10,278 bases of DNA from contig CBDBDR010000011.1 of NCBI GenBank assembly GCA_965203965.1, positions 1 through 10,278 of the forward strand, read 5' to 3'. The position numbers and the translations under genes are program-made. Origin of the DNA: Thermodesulfobacteriota bacterium. Its GTDB lineage: Bacteria; Desulfobacterota_D; UBA1144; Nemesobacterales; JAJCZQ01. Positions 337 through 9,300 of this stretch are shown one piece after another; position 1 is the stretch's first letter; every line of letters starts with the position of its first letter. A model generated the notes under the pieces. It searched no databases. It was not told where the DNA came from and saw nothing but the letters and a program-made list of their open reading frames with translations.

Positions 337-3300
337 CTGCAATTTAAACACTTATAAATCTATTCTTTATTATTATAATAATAATTATACCTGTGTTTCA
401 TTTTCTCTTAAACTTTCATGTTTTAACAATGATGGCAAAGTAGCATTTATCAAATCTGTTATGTATCGTCGGCCCATTGAAACATGGTGCTCCTCTTTAA
501 TAGTGTTCAGAAGTTTGCATAAACAAGTCAGATTATCCTTCATGTCATAAACAAGATCCTTGAAGAGGACCGCTGATTCGGTTTCTACAAAAGGAGTTTA
601 ATGCATAGTATCAATGGTTTCTGACACTCACCAAAATTGGATAGCTTTAGCCTCCATCGAGTTTCCAAAGAATCTTGGAAAAAAACAGAAAAGGGAAAAG
701 AACACACAAATGAAATCTGATAGAGGTCAAATCTGTTTTCTATGGTGGCAAAATGTTGCTGTTTTACGACATCAGAAATGATTTTGTGTTTAAATGCTTC
801 TATCCAGAAACAAGTAACAGGTTCATTACTGCACAAAAGAAGTTCCAGATTGTAGTTAGTATCAATGGCTGCAATAATACCAGAAAGAACACCTGCTGTT
901 TCACTTTCAAGTCGCCTCAGAATAACATTCATGAATGCTCCTCCATGTTGAAGATGTAATGAATTGGTAGCCTCTTCAACAATCCAATTCCTCATTTTAT
1001 TGTCAGCTTCTTCCTTTTTCTTAAGGATGGAATGTATGTAGTCAACCAATACTTCATAAAAGTCTGAGAAAAAATGAATTAATTATAATGCAAACAGTAC
1101 ACATAATAATTATGCATACCCTTATTGAATTCATTCCGTAATAATGTTAGCAAAACTAAATTAAGTTGTTTCATTCTCTCAGCTGTTATACCAATTGGCA
1201 AATGGGCAGCTTTTTCTACGGCTTGCTGTATATGGACATATAGCTTTAAATTAGCCTGTTCCTTTCGTTCAAAATGTTGTGCTGTTGACAGGCTTGTGTC
1301 ACAAAGAGGTGGTTCAATGTAAATCTTACGGAACAGTTCACTGAGTAGCTTTTTATGTTCATCAAAGGCAAGAGAGACAGGTGAAAATGGCTGCACAGGA
1401 AAAAAGTCATCAATATGAGTGCATATCCATTCACCACCATGAAAGCAAACAAAAGATGACTTGCTGTTGCCATGCTTTCTTGGTAGGTACACTGTAAATA
1501 AAACGTGGAAGTGCCCTTTTGCTCTTTTTGATGGCTGTGATGATTGCTCTTCAAGTAAAGGAGATTTTGGCGGATCGAGCCTAGCAGATTCCTCTTGAAT
1601 GATGTCTTCAAGGCGATATTTTGCACAGGCTAACAAATCACCATTTAAGTGACCAGAACCACACTGGACTATGAGAAGTACATCTTCCTGATCATGATCA
1701 AATTTTTGATATTCCTCTCTGGTAAAATTAAAAAAATATTACAATGAGTAATGAGTATTAATTATTATTTACCTAACTTTTGTCGTATAACTAAACTCGG
1801 TATCAAATTGTTGAAGAGAACACAAAACAACACGAGATTGAAGATTCTCTTCAAGCTCGTCAATCTTTCCCTCTGAAACCAACTGATTATGTGTTGTAGC
1901 CTGTGCATAACATTAATTAATTAGAAGTACAAACACATGTTAAAAATCTTGCCTGCATAAGGACACCTTGCTTGGTAAATGTAGTCTTGGAAATATGGTA
2001 CTGCACAAAATCTTCCAAAGACATATGATGCTGCCTCTCCATATAGATCTTACACAACTTAGTGTGTTCTTCCACTAAAGGGGTGTTTATAAGACGAATC
2101 AATGCATCTGGAGATGCCATCTCAAGCAAAAGAGATTTGCACGACTCAAAAACCTACAAAGAGAAATTGAATAGCAGTGGTACTATAGAACAATAAAAAA
2201 TATATGGTGCAAGTTCACAAAATATCTATGATCATGTTGAGCTGAGCAGATATTACTCCTTTGGTGAGACACAACCATAAGCTAATTATTTTTATCAAGC
2301 AATTTTGCCCCAAGACTCAGACAAGTTTCACCAAAAGTTCGATTCAAGAGCAGCAAACAATGATTATAATTATGGCTTTTCTAAATAATAGTTAGACAGT
2401 GCATCCGAGGATCTACGCGATTTAGAAGCCCGAGAGCCGTTGCTATATAGCGTCCGAGCGTAGCGAGGACGCTATGGCAACGGCGTGAGGGCTTCTAAAT
2501 CGCGTAGATCCGATTGGATGCACTGTCCAACTGGTTTAGACTATAGCAACAGCGAACAGAAACGACGCAAGCCAGTCGAAATCAAACGAGCAAAGCAACG
2601 ACTCTCTTTTTGTCCCGTCTTTGTTGACGGCGATATTCCTTGGATACCCGTGGGCAGAACCATGAATAGGCTCCAGAGCAGTGCAAAGAAGAACGCCGTC
2701 GAAGTTTTAACTGAAGACTTGCTATGGGCTAAAGGTTTGCTAGGAGGTGAAACACCGAAGATGCTATTGGACACTGTAGTTTTCTACAATGGTCTGTACT
2801 TCGCACTACGCAGTGGGAGAGAGCATCGCCTATTGAGACATTCACCTTGCCAAGTTGAGGTGGTCGAAAAGCCAGGTGAGCGACCTTATCTACTCTACCA
2901 CAAAGACCGTGACACATCCAGGAACCATCCTAGTGGTCTACAGGGATGCAAAACTATGCCTAAGGTTGTTATTCGCTACTCTAACACACAGAACCCCGAG
3001 AGATGCTTCGTCGCTCTATTTAAAAAGTATAGACAACTTTGCCCTGACAATCCAGTGGACCGGCAACGCATTCTACCTGCAACCATCGCTTTCTCCAACT
3101 GAGACCTGCTGGTACACACGGAAACCAATGGGTCACGCCTCGCTCAGTAGTACAGTGGCTCGACTGTGCAAACAAGTTGGTTCCGACGACTAACCAGACT
3201 CAAGAGAGACTCACCAGAGATCTACCATAGCTAACTTTATTGATTATTCAGTATATTTTTGTGCATTAATCGTAATCTATTGTTTTAGCACCATGTGGCG

Positions 3301-6300
3301 GGATTACATTACGGAGTGGCGGGATTACATTATGGGTGGAGGGATTACATTACGAGATTTAGATCCAAGCAACTAGACAATCTGATTGGCTAATACCACT
3401 AAGCTATAGTCTAAGTCACAAGTTGACTTAGTTTATTTTACTGCTGAGTATAATGATTAAGAAAACATGAATAACATTTTGTCCAGTATTCACCGTCAGC
3501 ATCGAAATAATTTTTATTTTTCCACACATAATTTTTCTGTTAGCTATTATGTCTATTCACCTCTTTCTCCCACTCCTTTGATGTTGGATCCATCAGCTGA
3601 TTTGCAGATAAACTTTTTGAAGCAGTAAATACAATTGCTGAAGGTGTATCAGACTGAAATCCTACAAATGAATCAGAAGGCTGAAACCTACGTACATGAA
3701 ATGTGTATTCATTGATTGTATGGCAATTTCCACATACTCATAGTTAGGCACGCTGTTAAATTCTTCAATCCATCTTTTGATCAAAATTAAAACCTTCTTT
3801 TGTCTTTCATTCAGCACTGTTGATGTGTCCACTATATGTTTCTCAAGACGGTTAATAAGTGGAGTTGGGAATCGATCATAGACTTCCTTTTTCTCAGCAA
3901 TAATAATCAATCTATTGAATGCTGATTTAAAATCATACAATATACAATATTTAACGGACTTAAAGTCATTGTGAACACGGCACTTGATTCGATGTGTTTG
4001 CAGTCCAAGATCTACAAATCGTGTATCAGCTCCATACTCACGATAATACTGTAAATAAATTTGATTGGATTTATAATTGTATGCATGCATACACACATAC
4101 CTGGTTTAGCACATCATAAAGACTTTCATATTCTTCATACAGGTTCAGTAAAATGACTGTTCTTCCTGTTTCCATACAAATTTTAATTGTGTTGATGTTT
4201 CTGTACACCTAGGATATTGCAAATAATTATAGTTATACTGAGCTATATACAGCAATTCCTTCAGCACCTGAGTTATCTGTCTATCTTTAGAAAAACTGCT
4301 TCCAAATATAATCAAAGGTGGTTGCTGGTCTACAGTTACTGTAGCACCAGATTTGCTAGGAAGCTCATGAGACTGCTGATAGTTAACTTCAAAAAAGTGT
4401 TGTAATGTTTGAAGTGCTGCATAGCTCTCAGTCAAAAATAACAGGTACCGATTTTGACTAGAAATACAAGAAGACATGTACATGGACATGTAACTTGTAC
4501 TTACCCATGATATGATCGCTCTTTATTTGCTAAGCTAGCTTTTATCAATCCTGCTGGACTGCAATCAGGCTCAATAAGTGGCCATATCTGTACAATTAGA
4601 CATTATTTTTTATTACAAATTACAGCAATAATTATTATACCTTTTCTTCGAATTTTTGGTCCAAGTAACTTTCAAACTCAGTTTGAACTTTTTCATTACA
4701 AAATTGACCCCTCACCAGTTGATCGTGAAATAAGTGCAACAATTCATTTTCACTTTTCTTATTTTCATTCAGTTGTAGAAACTTTTCCTTCAATAATTTA
4801 CAAGCATTTTCATCATTTTTGAATGCATCACAAAGCTTTCCTCTCCATTCTTCTATTTTGACATGTTTATCAGGGACAGAAGGAAAATTAGTCAATTGTG
4901 ATTGCTCAAACACTTTCCATGGATCAAACCCATCATATCCACTAAAGTTCCGCAGTATCACATGCTTAATTTGTGCCTTATTAGGAACACATTCAGCCTC
5001 TTTACATAACCAGTACAGCATTTTGATCAAACTACAATAATAAAATTAATGAAATAAATTTTACTGCAAAACTTTCTAACCTGTAAAAGTCTCTCAAGCC
5101 AAAAAACTCTTTTCTGATCTCTCCAGCTTCACCATTTTGTTTGTTAATAATTTCCAAGTATAAACTAGCAAAATATTTGAAGCATGGTTCCAGCCATTCA
5201 GCTACTTTATCACCAGAGCAAATTTCCCTGTTTAAGTTAAATTATTGCATAAAAATATTATTGTCAAAAATAAATCATTACTTGGCACTTTCAAATAGCT
5301 CATCTTCCTGAGGATCACATCTAGTCACCATGATACCACGATTCATCTTGGCTGGATCTAGAGCCCAATTAGATATTCCAATAAACGCGACTCTGTCTTC
5401 ACGATCAACAACCTACAAAATAATTATAGTACATGATATCCATTGAAGCTGCATAAAATTAATTATGCCACGCGGTAGACGTGGCATATTTAGGGCTGGG
5501 CAGAAAACAAGATGGCGGCTACACATAGGCTAACGCAATAATTCATGTATATCTTGGCTATTGACGACATCAGTGGTATTTATTAGGGAGGCACGGTAGT
5601 GACTCCCTATGTAGGGATGAACGAGAAAACAAGATGGCGGCTACATACAATGTATTAGTGTTCAAACGCAGATATTTCGCCTGGTGATGAATTTTATACG
5701 TCCATAGACACTCAAATCTGCTATCTGGCGTTGCCCCATCTTACAGTAGCAAGGAGATTGCTCGAAATTGTTACTAAAGTGACGAACCTGGAAACGGTGA
5801 AAATCGAGTTTCGTCATCTTCGTTTTCTTTCTTTCTTTCTTTCTTCCACTCGCCTAGCACCTTTACGTGAGCAGTGCCGAGACCAAAACACCCACGAACA
5901 GTCGTGAAATTCTCCTGGCATGTGCCTTTTGAACTTTGTTTTTAGCGTAACGGCGATATAAATTCAGCGATTTCTCGATCGTGATCTATTGTCAGCTTAG
6001 TGTTAGACGCCATTATTGTGATTGCGCAATACGCACGTGACCAAGCAGTGGCTAGCGCACGTGACCAAGCAGTTAGAGTATCGCCGCGCCGTATGGATCA
6101 ATATCACGGTGAACACATACCTGGCATTTGTCTGGAGTCTTCGAAGAACGGTAAGCTCGTGTAGGATCGCCATTCTGCGCTTGCCAGATAATTATAACCG
6201 CCATATGTCTACAAACAAGGGTGGGCTGGGCTCGTATGCAATGCATGCATGCGTAGGCGACTAGGCAGAGCTGATTTGTCAATTTTAGCTACAAGTTTAA

Positions 6301-9300
6301 GAAAAGCCATCAACAACAGCAATACTAAACTAATGGTGGAAACAAAGACTTCTGAATACATGCATGATATTGAACTGCACTTCACTGAAAAAGAAAAAAG
6401 GACACAAACAAGTAAATTAAAAAGATTTCTATTGAAATCAAAAGGATGTAGTGATGAAGAAATCTACCACTGGTTCACAGTGTAAACCAACAAGGAACAA
6501 GCATGGAATGGTAACACGATTGACTTGCTAACAGACCATAGATCCCTACATCAGTGGCTGTACATAAGACTATGATCAATATTTTGTCACAAACAGCTGA
6601 ATTCAATTCAATGCACGTCAGGTGTCAGTCAACAGTAACTAGCTGAACTAGCTATGTCAGGCCACAGCAGCCACTGATGTAGGGATCTATGGTCTGTTAG
6701 CAAGTCAATCGTGTTACCATTCCATGCTTGTTCCTTTTTGGTTTACATTGTGAACCAGTGGTAGATTTCTTCATCACTACATCCTTTTGATTTCGATAGA
6801 AATCTTTTTAATTTACTTTATTATTATTTGCTGTACATGTAGTTATTATTATGCATGAAAGTGCCATGCAATCACTTATAATTATTATGCTATGGGATAT
6901 GAAATTAAATTATTATTAATGATTGGAGAATTGCCAACTAAGTATACTTATACTACAGCTCAATGTAATTCTAGAATCTGATTGGTCAGTTGGAGGAAAA
7001 TAGATCACATATTCTTCCGCGGGAACTCGATTGGAACTCGTCAGTGTTTTCCTCTGGCATGAGTTTCTTTTGTATACATTCAGTCTACTGTCTTATGTTC
7101 AGATTTATAGCACAGGTACTAGCTTTGGTAGTTACTGGTTGTGCGTTCGCTTCTTGGTATGGGCAGTGTCTATAGGCCAGGGTACTTGGCTACGATTGAC
7201 TTGTTGTGCATGAAAAGCGTAAGAAAGCAAGAAACTCACAGCATTTTGCTATGTTAACAGCTCAAAGCTTGCCTAATAAATGCACACAGCACGTACAAAA
7301 GACTATCATTCTAACTATTCGTTGGAGTCACAAGGTCAGCCATTGCAACGTGGAACGCAAAGTGGCGTTTGTGGGTGTGGCAGCTGGTCACAGTGCGTGT
7401 TTTCGAGCAAGAAGAAACGCTCGTGCTGCAGGAAATTGTCGCTTTGGGACGGTCATGAACCATTGTTATTCAAAAATATCTGTGTCGGTTTATTGTTGCC
7501 ATGTAGCTGTAGTATAAATACCTTAGACTACAAATCATCGGCAACTACGGGATTTAGAGCACCTTGGCAACTGAAATAGACGCCCTCGCGCTATGCGCTC
7601 GGGTTGTCTATACATCGGTTCCCGCGGTACTCTACACCCTGTAGTTGCTTCGATCCGTCGTCTAACCTATACGTATAAACTAAAAAAGATGAATAAAAAG
7701 GATGTAAAGACAGCTGATAAGCAATCTTTAATTCTGAATGAAATGAGCAATGAAGAAATCTACCACTGGAGAGGTAACACGGAATGATACACAATTAACT
7801 GCGCTACTGTAGGGTTGGGGCAATGCCAGATAATTTTTGAAGTAAGTATATCTTTGGTCACGTACAGTACCGTTCACGAGTAAGTGTACTCAAACCCGCG
7901 GGCTAACCGCGCGTAACTCGGGGGTGCCCGCGGGTTCGTGAACATGTACCCGCTGCCCGTACCACACTAACCCGCGGCCCTCATGCAGCCTTGCATGCAC
8001 TCGCGCCCCGCTAGATAGCTAGGCAGACTCACGTTGTCGTTGTGCGACCTGCGCGAGCATATACAGTGCTCGCACGTATCCGCACCAGCGCGTGATGCAC
8101 TCTGTATTTGCATCTACCCGCGGTTAATGATATACGGTTCCGCGGGCAAGACAAAATTACCCCCGGGTTGCCTGCGAGTCTCCCGCGGGTGTTGGTCCAC
8201 TTACTCGTGAGCGGTACTGTACATTATTTTTACCACCTGGTGAAATACTACTACATGGCATTGCAGCTTCATTTTTCCGCCTATCCCATGCAAACTTACA
8301 TCGACGGAATAGTTGCTTCCTTCAGTTCCATCTTCTAACCAAGGATGAAGGACCTTTAGTGGTAGACCAGGTGAGTCCTCAGCAAGTCCTACTTCATCAA
8401 GTACAACAACAGACACAAATTTGTTTCTGTCTATTTTTCTTTGTATTGCAATAGCTTGTTCAAAAACATTTGAAATACTTTCAGAAGTTGATAGTTGACT
8501 GCACTGATATGAAAACATTTGAATCTACAATAAAAGAACATTGATTATTAATTTTGATAGGACTATATTAATATAGTTAGCATCACCTCTTTAAAATTTT
8601 GCAAAAATCCACTTCCCGTCATCGAATCATTAACAATTTTTTTAGCAAGTGATTTAGAAGTTCCCGGTTTGCCAATAAGGAATAGTGGTATCTTCACATT
8701 TGCACAAACCACCATCATCATGACATTCTCACAAAGTGCTCTGTTGTGTGCAATATTCTGTCCAACTTCTCGCATGTTGTTTAAAAATACTTCCTGGCAG
8801 CTTTAAAAATAGGAAGTACCCATTACAAGTGATCGCATATGTTGCTGCTTTGTTCTTACCGAAGAACATGGTCGACAAAATGTTCTGGTGTAATTCGACA
8901 CAATGGATATTCAAAAACAGGTGAGACAGCAGCTACAAAATCGTCCCGCTTAGCTCGTTCTTGAAGTCTTGCATAGTAGCAAACTGACAGAGCCAAAAGA
9001 ACTGCTCTTGTTGTTTTACACTATATATATCATAAATACAAACACAATACTATTGTTCAACCAATTACCGTTATAAAAGTTGAATTCTTGAATAACTTCC
9101 TCATTTCAGATTCAATCACGTCTGATTTTTCAATGAAGAACTTGAAGACAATCATTGTTCTATCCACATCACGCAGACTCACATAGCTGCATTCATCCTA
9201 TGAAGATGATACATGATTAAGTTGATTGGTGTATAACACATAATGCAAAAAGCTGACCTTTGTATTTCTCATAAAATCTTGTGATGCATTCAGAATACTA

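Follow-up and report, generated by a model that had tools for sequence, protein, structure and literature searches.

Cryptons are DNA transposons, reportedly described as such by Goodwin et al. in 2003, and we know of no demonstration of the way in which they move. The recombinase of the DIRS retrotransposons has long been suspected of a Crypton-like origin. The attC sites of integrons and attP(+) of the CTX phage are imperfect hairpins of one strand that rebuild a duplex core with an unpaired or unequal crossover spacer; one strand is exchanged, replication resolves the product, homology with the target is minimal, and the inserted units lie in tandem arrays. The transposase of IS608 is an HUH (Y1) enzyme that works through 5'-phosphotyrosine, with guides of 4 nt.

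The section of Kojima and Jurka (2011; PMC3212892) on animal Cryptons presents them as lacking terminal repeats of any kind. Cryptons in general are characterized, in the parts of three articles that deal with them (PMC8969392, PMC12130899, PMC13465315), by a short terminal direct repeat only, a low copy number, and the absence of a conserved structure, and the reviews among these, in the same parts, call them enigmatic and without a structural hallmark (PMC8969392, PMC12130899). DIRS-1, according to the passages on this element in PMC7192593, has an essential internal complementary region (ICR) complementary to both extremities, for which a role in end repair and circle closure was proposed and partly shown; it forms single-stranded intermediates, its target is defined by the junction trinucleotide, and it inserts into older copies.

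The window analyzed here, a stretch of 10,278 nucleotides, contains a non-autonomous, decayed element of the CryptonA type (DUF3504 tyrosine recombinase) at positions 2385–3414 of the + strand (1030 bp), with an internal deletion and a frameshift. It lies in a minus-strand host intron (2152–3558) that is delimited by a contig joint (2151->3559, with CT..AC ends) in run X6, the RNA nature of which is only a guess. The remaining introns of this minus-strand gene are 50–60 nt long (X6 joints of 50–59 nt with the same CT..AC ends). The element-bearing contig, with its eukaryotic host gene, is part of an otherwise bacterial assembly.

The preliminary description had bounded the element by a terminal direct repeat, TCTAA, at 2380–2384 and 3410–3414. 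All of its letters and coordinates were correct, and alignments of copies agree with ATAAT on the left and GTCTAA on the right. The second TCTAA is the right terminus of the element; the first, however, belongs to the flank, being target sequence that is identical by chance to the final 5 nt of the element, which starts at 2385. TCTAA is equal at both ends in the window but not a constant terminal direct repeat: the 5-mer at the left-flank position varies among other copies, and targets share only TA(N). Many contigs have loose ends at 2380/2382/2385, in agreement with this left terminus. The first bases of the element are the spacer ATAAT (2385–2389), which AG extends to the 7-bp spacer in the core of the joined ends (GTCTAA-ATAATAG-TTAGAC). 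Toward the right end there are three tandem repeats of 20–21 bp (GTGGCGGGATTACATTACGG; 3295–3355), a CCAAT-type palindrome (CAATCTGATTGG; 3378–3389) that is conserved in both genomes, and the terminal 12-mer GCTATAGTCTAA (3403–3414), which pairs with 2536–2547 and has the crossover point immediately 3' of it. No terminal inverted repeats were found in the integrated form of the element.

The ORF at 2485–3102 has a Pfam match to DUF3504 (2.4e-21), the only domain matched by the window ORFs; since a second frame (2855–3193) continues the domain, a frameshift lies near 3050–3060. The remnant of the tyrosine-recombinase gene (2662–3169, + strand) corresponds approximately to residues 191–350 of a protein of ~510 aa. 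The box I arginine (LRSGREH) is kept, while HxxR and the catalytic Tyr have been deleted, and the window copy is therefore dead. We found 38 relatives. The Pfam matches of the recombinase are DUF3504, a QRICH1-type N domain, and Phage_integrase, and its Atlas neighbors are eukaryotic. The full-length relatives have 509–524 aa, 69–74% identity, and the domains PF12012, PF25561, and PF00589; among their residues, R247 never varies, and H375, R378, H401, and Y410 hardly do. A recombinase copy sharing the ends of the window element, on which the preliminary description had made its reading depend, is present at L016:4337–6720; it is near full length (2.38 kb) and lies between the same ends, although it is decayed, and an intact autonomous copy bounded by these ends was not encountered. 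The surrounding L016:3000–8000 holds one ORF of at least 120 aa, and the 2.38-kb copy has room for a single ORF; genes for gag, reverse transcriptase, and RNase H were not found in it. This copy encodes no other transposition enzyme (reverse transcriptase or DDE transposase).

The left end opens a 143-nt imperfect hairpin (2390–2532, + strand; arms 2390–2447 and 2473–2532), the flaws of which are one A.C mismatch (2394/2528) and a 2-nt bulge of the right arm at an ATTGG motif. The DNA fold of the 181 nt at 2380–2560 has an energy of -67.4 kcal/mol (z = -14.1), and none of 200 shuffles was as low. At the apex, the motif CCGAGCGTAGCGAGG (2454–2468, + strand) is conserved in sequence and orientation although the stems change, with the "flip" orientation in 16 of 19 copies, the inverted one in 1, and loss in 2. 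An inverted hairpin centre was recorded in 1 of the 19 scripted copies and also in L016, where it was judged by eye. The right arm belongs to an internal complementary region (2473–2547, + strand) that complements the joined left and right ends and consists of this arm, a GGT spacer (2533–2535), and the 12-mer TTAGACTATAGC (2536–2547). The 12-mer forms an inverted repeat with 3403–3414 at 12 of 12 positions, and the reverse complement of 2519–2547 reads GCTATAGTCTAA-ACC-AGTTGGACAGTGCA. A third copy of the hairpin-arm motif, direct and unpaired (TACGAGATTTAGA; 3351–3363, + strand; cf. 2414–2426), is a candidate accessory binding site of the recombinase; 5 of 8 families have it at an equivalent position, 38–51 nt away from the right end and with a family-specific sequence. 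Rfam gave no match within the element.

The same plan of hairpin and ends was found in nine subfamilies from two genomes, including the decayed recombinase copy in L016. Beyond the window, the arrangement is repeated in 21 more copies and eight more subfamilies; it is therefore far beyond chance. ATAAY-AGTTAGA, the left end, opens the hairpin (~140 nt); 3 nt of spacer come next, and then a 12-mer complementary to the final 12 nt of the element (GCT-NNNN-TCTAA). The family is a high-copy one with gene-less short derivatives of ~370 bp. Summed contig depth over the hairpin, which is not a copy number, was 68,241 in run X2 and 305,504 in run X3, compared with ~50 and 137 in the flanks.

The preliminary description had named as tests the conservation and covariation of the 12-nt inverted repeat and compensatory covariation in the hairpin arms, and both were borne out, the former in the eight subfamilies tabulated from two genomes. 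Among 22 internal sites found by pattern, 21 had a right end 66–752 nt downstream that matched over 11 nt with at most one mismatch (14 exactly). Within the eight subfamilies, the end 11-mer and its internal partner differed at 2 of 88 positions, whereas pairs from different families had 2.04 mismatches per 11 on average, and just 2 of 40320 permutations were as good. Read on the + strand, the two within-family mismatches are both G.T; a third family carries G-C at this position. The four variable positions beside TCTAA change freely provided that the partner changes too, and subfamilies b and d, with nearly identical hairpins, differ at one position in both the end and the internal 11-mer. 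In the hairpin, 25 of 54 pairs show compensatory double changes among nine family representatives, and complementarity spans the entire arms, not the arm motif alone. Spacer lengths are constant across families, at 3 nt internally and 5 nt at the end. A G-versus-A difference between the right end and the internal site is common to all three copies of family a and all four short-family copies of G000. At the level of family consensus, G.T outnumbered A.C by 10 to 3, whereas the nine single representatives had G.U in 8 columns and A.C in 7, so that the strand bias is weak. As a counterpoint, gene conversion of the inverted repeat (concerted evolution) could imitate such covariation.

Insertion was examined at a paralogous empty site. 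In three uninterrupted copies, GTATCTAA and CTGTTAT are contiguous, and in G001 C41 a 348-bp element splits them with nothing duplicated. The insertion occurred exactly 3' of a single TCTAA without target duplication, which is what had been expected of an empty site. The left flank of other copies shares only T-A (-3/-2) with the terminal TAA of the element, and identity with the target comprises T(-3) in 17, A(-2) in 19, and T(+8) in 17 of 19 copies. The spacer of the element is found at the left end only in all 19 copies (ATAAY in 18, ATATA in 1); the right flank is of the target type, the two exceptions being junctions, tandem or nested, at which a further element starts.

Once a circle or a head-to-tail dimer has brought the ends together, a single strand is able to form a ~175-nt hairpin, in which the crossover TAA^ATAAY faces a spacer 2 nt shorter; GTCTAA and TTAGAC then form inverted 6-bp arms around the 7-bp spacer. 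Natural head-to-tail copies carry the predicted junction GTCTAA-ATAAY-AGTTAGAC, as in a dimer with GTCTAA-ATAAT-GGTTAGAC and a heterologous dimer with GTCTAA-ATAAC-AGTTAGATAC. The hairpin of ~170 nt that the preliminary description had predicted for joined ends is matched by the natural dimer junction, which gives a fold of ~180 nt in which the 12-mer is paired (+ strand, -64.8 kcal/mol; - strand, -54.6 kcal/mol). Neither a circle junction (3414->2385) nor an exact empty allele was among the joints listed for the contigs of four runs.

The long joined-end hairpin suggests that transposition of Cryptons may proceed through DNA circles in a folded, single-stranded form. Tyrosine recombinases cleave both strands of a site at the 5' margin of the spacer, a rule that would have to hold for the present enzyme as well. 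The joined ends would constitute a classical recombinase core (GTCTAA, 7-bp spacer, TTAGAC) of which the + strand alone is exchanged: exchange between the ends of an integrated copy would close this strand into a circle that is released at the next replication. The single-stranded circle would then fold, and its internal complementary region would provide the core with a built-in partner strand, much as happens in attC sites of integrons or in the attP(+) hairpin of the CTX phage; the recombinase would join the folded strand to a (C)TAN^N7-T target, and replication would complete the insertion. From such a cycle would follow the lack of target duplication and the weak target homology, as well as the high copy number and the frequent landing of insertions immediately after the TCTAA of copies already in place. 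We infer this folded single-stranded mechanism from the structure, and the signature of one-strand exchange and the G.T intermediates give it indirect support. That the + strand alone is exchanged, through a single-stranded circle in which the internal region supplies the missing partner strand, has in our judgment about even chances of being correct. The third, unpaired arm motif and the two-sided target preference would fit sequence-specific binding to duplex DNA equally well.

Alternatively, the ends may act as a duplex site resembling attP on a double-stranded circle, which we consider unlikely. The palindrome would then represent two inverted sets of recombinase-binding sites plus a crippled second core with a 5-bp spacer, which would shape the synaptic complex as do the attP arm sites of lambda and the inverted FRT repeats in the 2-micron plasmid of yeast, and the arms would be alike through binding one protein and homogenization by gene conversion. 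The joined ends do form a textbook core, with 6-bp inverted arms around a 7-bp spacer; 5 of 8 families repeat the unpaired arm motif at 38–51 nt from the right end, target preferences flank the crossover on both sides, and an inverted hairpin centre (1 of 19 copies and L016) is expected from arm-arm recombination. However, families b and d share the hairpin, and presumably the recombinase, yet their co-varying 11-mers differ, and the four positions by TCTAA are free to change with their partner. Moreover, whole arms are complementary beyond the motif, and the left-only spacer in 19 of 19 copies is unlike a two-strand exchange across unlike spacers.

It is quite improbable that the internal region is, as in DIRS elements, a template that restores the ends of incomplete linear single-stranded intermediates before circle closure, the intermediates being cDNA from a reverse transcriptase acting in trans or nicked DNA. 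The topology equals that of DIRS-1 (L, then L'R', then R), and the traits given for DIRS-1 in the relevant passages, namely the ICR, single-stranded intermediates, the junction trinucleotide, and insertion into older copies, are paralleled here. Nevertheless, the 2.38-kb full-length copy has a recombinase ORF only, DIRS and Ngaro recombinases lack any DUF3504 match in the part of PMC3212892 that treats them, and the G-versus-A difference shared throughout family a and the short G000 copies means that the end is not recopied from the internal site in every cycle.

A role outside recombination, as a promoter or 5' leader of the recombinase, a second-strand priming site, or a source of small RNA, with the 12-nt match as a by-product of insertion with a palindromic core, is very hard to believe: the hairpin does lie immediately upstream of the ORF start, with ATTGG on its right arm and a CCAAT palindrome at the right end, 16 of 19 copies preserve both the sequence and the orientation of its apical motif, and contigs of a run guessed as RNA cover it, but a by-product would neither covary at four free positions in eight families nor hold a fixed 5-versus-3-nt spacer difference, the entire structure is kept in gene-less short copies, and the element has no Rfam match.

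With + strand exchange as the preferred reading, we tentatively propose, as a possibility that falls somewhat short of even chances, that this clade of animal-type Cryptons follows a top-strand-only tyrosine-recombinase cycle via folded single-stranded circular DNA. This cycle would be the first eukaryotic counterpart of integron cassettes and the CTX phage, and the complementary region would be a DNA-level forerunner of the DIRS-1 ICR, a mechanistic link between Cryptons and tyrosine-recombinase retrotransposons. If the single-strand model is true, folded-DNA recombination would no longer be a bacterial specialty, and the very high copy number of a recombinase element without target duplication would be explained. 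The hallmark of the family (a subterminal hairpin, an internal joined-end complement, and a palindromic junction core) would let short Crypton-derived elements be annotated, the 12-nt pairing makes the transposition model open to concrete mutational tests, and the family links Cryptons in structure with the ICR found in DIRS retrotransposons.

Like the IS200/IS605 elements (IS608), the element has subterminal hairpins and internal bases that would pair with both end cleavage sites in single-stranded DNA; in contrast to IS608, it uses a tyrosine recombinase, and the pairing comprises 12 nt and a hairpin arm. With attC and CTX attP(+) it shares an imperfect hairpin that rebuilds the core with an unequal spacer (5 versus 3 nt in all families), minimal target homology, and tandem insertions. 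Its product structure (left-only spacer, 19 of 19) would fit the exchange of one strand; the G.T strand bias is weak. It differs in being eukaryotic and in having a hairpin that is complete only once the ends are joined, and, judging by its Pfam matches and eukaryotic Atlas neighbors, its recombinase belongs to a family other than those of IntI and XerC/D. Like CryptonA elements, it has a single DUF3504-matching tyrosine recombinase ORF, no reverse transcriptase, terminal inverted repeats, or target duplication, non-autonomous derivatives more numerous than autonomous copies, and a presumed circular intermediate. It departs from the published Cryptons by a subterminal hairpin of 140 nt, an internal sequence complementary to the joined ends, a palindromic junction core, and a very high copy number; no comparable end design for Cryptons was found in the literature searched.

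The likeness to DIRS-1, as that element is portrayed in the passages available, lies in an internal stretch complementary to the adjoined left and right extremities (L, then L'R', then R), the lack of target duplication, a junction trinucleotide in common with the target, insertion into older copies, and a single-stranded intermediate, which is proposed for the present element. On the other hand, this Crypton-type element has no gag, reverse transcriptase, or RNase H, and its recombinase is of the DUF3504 type, which DIRS recombinases do not match (PMC3212892). Its complement adjoins the left end in the hairpin, whereas that of DIRS-1 is placed before the right repeat, and the right end pairs over 12 nt compared with the 55 nt given for DIRS-1. 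Instead of the inverted terminal or split direct repeats of DIRS types, the inverted repeat is confined to the left end, and just 12 nt of it are shared by the right end. The internal region works like an ICR in an element that is not a member of DIRS.

The last 12 nt of the element (3403-3414) are exactly complementary to an internal site at 2536-2547 (TTAGACTATAGC), as the preliminary description had claimed, and all the sequence letters quoted there were correct when the window was rechecked. The 143-nt hairpin occupies 2390-2532. Folding of 2380-2560 as DNA gave -67.4 kcal/mol (z = -14.1), a value that none of 200 shuffles equalled. The Rfam search found nothing within the element, and its sole match in the window (E 0.74) was far below threshold. 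The ORF at 2485-3102 matched DUF3504 (2.4e-21), and the domain resumed in a second frame, indicating a frameshift near 3050-3060. Full-length relatives have 509-524 aa and 69-74% identity; the window retains only approximately residues 191-350 and, compared with them, lacks both the HxxR box and the catalytic tyrosine. Judged from this sequence, the window element is a dead, doubly deleted copy.

The 10,278-bp contig C11, which is the entire window, is one of 17 contigs in the assembly. By appearance, the 1.5-Mb contig is a bacterial chromosome; the remaining 16 small contigs (~0.48 Mb in total, 35-46% GC) have eukaryote-type repeats in common with the window. Although the assembly has a completeness score of 99.5% as a bacterial genome, these contigs (C1-C16) look eukaryotic, with 50-60-nt introns and shared transposons. 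Contig C11 is host DNA carried along in the bacterial assembly. In the window, contigs of a sequencing run that we guess to be RNA bridged CT..AC-bounded gaps of 50-59 nt, and a single joint (2151->3559) spanned the element region. These joints indicate a minus-strand host gene with tiny introns, one of which is enlarged and contains the element. The element was also considered as an intron-creating “introner”; this reading was rejected, because the intron (2152-3558) runs 233 and 144 nt past the element and the splice sites are therefore not the element’s own. When eight neighbouring minus-strand ORFs were compared with Pfam, the only hint was a weak MoxR-type AAA ATPase match of an exon-like ORF of the host gene (8563-8775, minus strand), with an E value of 0.007, below cut-off strength. 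The same gene is interrupted by a 2.8-kb block of other host repeats (5440-8240), which contains a hairpin with 98% complementary 151-nt arms (6410-6560 and 6668-6818) and a 64-nt inverted-repeat pair (7862-7925 and 8159-8222). Parts of this block recur on C16, C5, C2, C7, C4, C1, and C15 of the assembly.

The host contigs of the assembly hold five further copies and one right-end fragment. The copies comprise three short gene-less ones of ~375 bp each (two arranged head to tail on C1), another deleted copy, and, on C15, a 1.1-kb copy from a diverged subfamily. No other recombinase copies were detected by tblastn in this assembly. Many contigs from public runs end in unlike sequence just before 2380, 2382, or 2385, and these ends, together with the copies, place the start of the element at ATAAT (2385) and its stop at GTCTAA (3414). 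These termini agree with the preliminary description, except that the left TCTAA, which it had counted as part of the element, belongs to the flank. The joined-end sequence that it had predicted exists in nature: the head-to-tail pair on C1 reads GCTGTGGTCTAA-ATAAT-GGTTAGAC, with TCTAA present once. The fold of this junction reached -64.8 kcal/mol (z = -11.3) with the 12-mer paired, while the opposite strand reached -54.6. Among the joints shown for four runs, all of which consisted of contigs, neither a circle joint (3414->2385) nor an exact empty allele (2384->3415) appeared; this speaks neither for nor against such forms. When contig depth was summed, which does not give a copy number, the hairpin had ~1000x the value of the flanks (68,241 vs ~50 in run X2 and 305,504 vs ~137 in run X3). 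The degenerate 23-letter pattern of the hairpin apex had 0 matches in genome_contigs; its sole match in metagenome_contigs (L015) was, on reading, an unrelated GC-rich contig and was rejected as a chance match.

With a profile of ten full-length recombinase relatives (A1), a single locus was identified in the genome collection: L016, in a second genome (G001). Its record is likewise labelled bacterial, and its contigs are eukaryotic in appearance. The 2.38-kb element carries, in order, the left end (caa/ATAATAGTTAGAC), the internal site (GTCTAACTATTTTAGACTGTAGC), a decayed recombinase ORF that spans profile positions 5-452 and contains stops and a deletion, the CCAAT palindrome, and the right end (GCTGCAGTCTAA). 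Thus, the same ends accompany a recombinase-bearing copy of the autonomous type, though a dead one. Across the 8 Mb of G001 searched, there were 39 matches to the L016 element and 63 to a short subfamily, representing at least six subfamilies. Intact relatives of the recombinase are present as proteins in public data; in viral_contigs, none of 21 pattern matches was confirmed as a relative. A more distant recombinase fragment in G001 (L024:980-1310, C18) has two hairpins ahead of it, one with 51-nt arms starting AAATAGTTATATC and one with 93-nt arms immediately before the ORF start; such an upstream hairpin may be general in the clade.

The complementarity of the right end and the internal site was maintained while their sequences changed. 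The internal-site pattern search gave 25 sites, from which 3 were dropped because they were either mirror images at a tandem junction or matches across families. For 21 of the remaining 22, a right end lay 66-752 nt downstream with its last 11 nt within one mismatch, 14 of them exact. These 11-mers agree within subfamilies and differ between them. The right end and the reverse complement of the internal site both read CTATAG in the window, CTATGG in subfamily b, CTATGC in d, CTGTGC in e, CTATAC in f, and CTATGCTATAA in C15b; the right end is CTGCAG against CTACAG in subfamily a, and CTGTGG against CTATGG in the short family of the window’s assembly. Within families, 2 of 88 positions were mismatched, compared with a between-family mean of 2.04 per 11, and only 2 of 40320 pairing permutations were as good as that observed. 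The inverted repeat is conserved and covaries across these eight subfamilies from two genomes. In each of the two mismatches, G faces T on the + strand; six families have A-T and one has G-C at this position, and the mismatches read as the classical route of compensatory change. Between TCTAA and the arm, the joined ends invariably have a 5-nt spacer (ATAAY, in one case ATATA) and the internal site a 3-nt one, so that the folded form would always have a 2-nt inequality at the crossover.

The hairpin arms also covary: of 54 hairpin pairs aligned across nine family representatives, 25 were kept by two-sided changes. The ratio of G.T to A.C wobble pairs was 10:3 in family consensus sequences and 8 vs 7 columns among single representatives; the + strand bias is weak, and a clear one was dropped as an interpretation. 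Of 19 copies, 15 folded better as the + strand, for the most part only slightly so. The central ~55 nt of the hairpin is exactly inverted in a subfamily b copy of G001 (C41:87468-87838 vs C41:53070-53440; L049 and L032) and, by eye, in the subfamily a copy at L016:4345-4430, with the outer-arm asymmetry unswapped. Scripted comparison of 19 copies gave 16 flip, 1 flop, and 2 in which the centre is lost, in addition to the L016 flop. Rolling-hairpin replication, from which equal flip and flop are expected, is ruled out by this rarity. The inverted centres appear to be infrequent secondary inversions, and they do show that the arms occasionally recombine or fold in vivo.

Other conserved features accompany the hairpin. 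In all subfamilies (alignment A2), a bulge in its right arm, at 2513-2517 in the window, yields ATTGG, a CCAAT box on the opposite strand. Likewise in all subfamilies, a CCAAT palindrome (CAATCTGATTGG or ACCAATCAGATT; 3378-3389 in the window) lies ~15-30 nt from the right-end 12-mer. Both are possible promoter elements, which would face the recombinase ORF across the joined ends. The conserved apex (2454-2468, CCGAGCGTAGCGAGG) includes TAGCGA, which resembles the CS-6 loop motif of ssoA single-strand origins in bacterial rolling-circle plasmids; the likeness may be a coincidence.

The joined ends form a palindromic core, GTCTAA-N7-TTAGAC, and insertion occurs 3' of TA(N) without duplication. 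Among 19 copies with both ends, the left flank has A at -2 in all 19, T at -3 in 17, C at -4 in 10, and A, T, C, and G at -1 in 10, 6, 3, and 0, respectively; the right flank has T at +8 in 17 and A at +9 in 11. The element spacer stands at the left end in 19/19 (ATAAY 18, ATATA 1) and never in the right flank, save where another element directly adjoins. Four insertions sit immediately behind another copy’s TCTAA: the C1 dimer, family a then family b on C41 of G001, family f then a b/d-type left end on C2, and an f element within the left end of a minus-strand b copy. The last provides a paralogous empty site: GTATCTAA directly adjoins CTGTTAT in three uninterrupted copies, and a 348-bp element separates them in the filled site, with nothing duplicated and nothing lost. 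Different subfamilies lie head to tail or nested in each other’s end cores (G001 C41:52600-53440, C41:95883-96600, and C2:49354-49545; G000, the window’s assembly, C1:2008-2752), in arrays that resemble cassette arrays. This suggests that insertion favours the TCTAA ends of the elements themselves. The internal site was rejected as a second crossover site, since no copy is permuted there and its core has a 5-bp spacer rather than one of 7 bp.

On each strand, a tyrosine recombinase cleaves at the spacer’s 5' edge. If both strands were exchanged across unlike spacers, the element spacer would come to lie equally often at either end; its constant position at the left fits exchange of the + strand only. 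The observation in the preliminary description is real and its reading holds; for the folded single-stranded mechanism that it proposed, we infer an even chance that movement proceeds by + strand-only exchange through a single-stranded circle, with the partner strand supplied by the internal complementary region. If one strand were exchanged in this way between the two ends of an integrated element, the + strand would be closed into a circle and released as single-stranded DNA, while one daughter chromosome would retain the element; this would account for the high copy number. The core of such a circle would lack a partner strand, which the internal region would provide, and the unequal spacer would protect the internal-region side from cutting. 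At the target, the + strand alone would be exchanged, and replication would complete insertion. We take integron attC, CTX phage attP(+), and the IS608 guide sequences to be the closest analogues of this mechanism.

A duplex attP-like site with architectural repeats would also agree with the target preference on both sides and with the presence, in 5 of 8 families, of the arm motif a third time and unpaired, at 38-51 nt from the right end. Subfamilies b and d hardly differ in their hairpins, and both of their 11-mers differ at one position, which indicates a constraint on complementarity and not a fixed protein-binding sequence; we regard the duplex site as possible but doubtful. Templated end repair of the DIRS type is unlikely, as no reverse transcriptase is present and the G/A difference that separates the end from the internal site is inherited. 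It is also unlikely that the hairpin acts as a promoter, in priming, or as a source of small RNA and that the 12-nt match is a by-product.

By its enzyme and the absent target duplication, the element is classified as a Crypton. In the openly searchable full-text literature, no description of a Crypton hairpin or internal complement was found, and relative to that literature the end architecture is undescribed for Cryptons. Kojima and Jurka 2011 report that animal Cryptons showed no terminal repeats and that DUF3504 is unmatched by the DIRS and Ngaro recombinases (PMC3212892). According to Goubert et al. 2022, Cryptons are low-copy elements whose sole structural feature is a short terminal direct repeat (PMC8969392). 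An introner survey states that conserved structural features are lacking (PMC12130899), and the Glomhopper paper that repeats are variable or poorly conserved (PMC13465315). The closest analogue by layout is the ICR of DIRS-1, which is essential and complements both extremities of an element that has single-stranded intermediates and a junction trinucleotide and inserts into older copies (PMC7192593).
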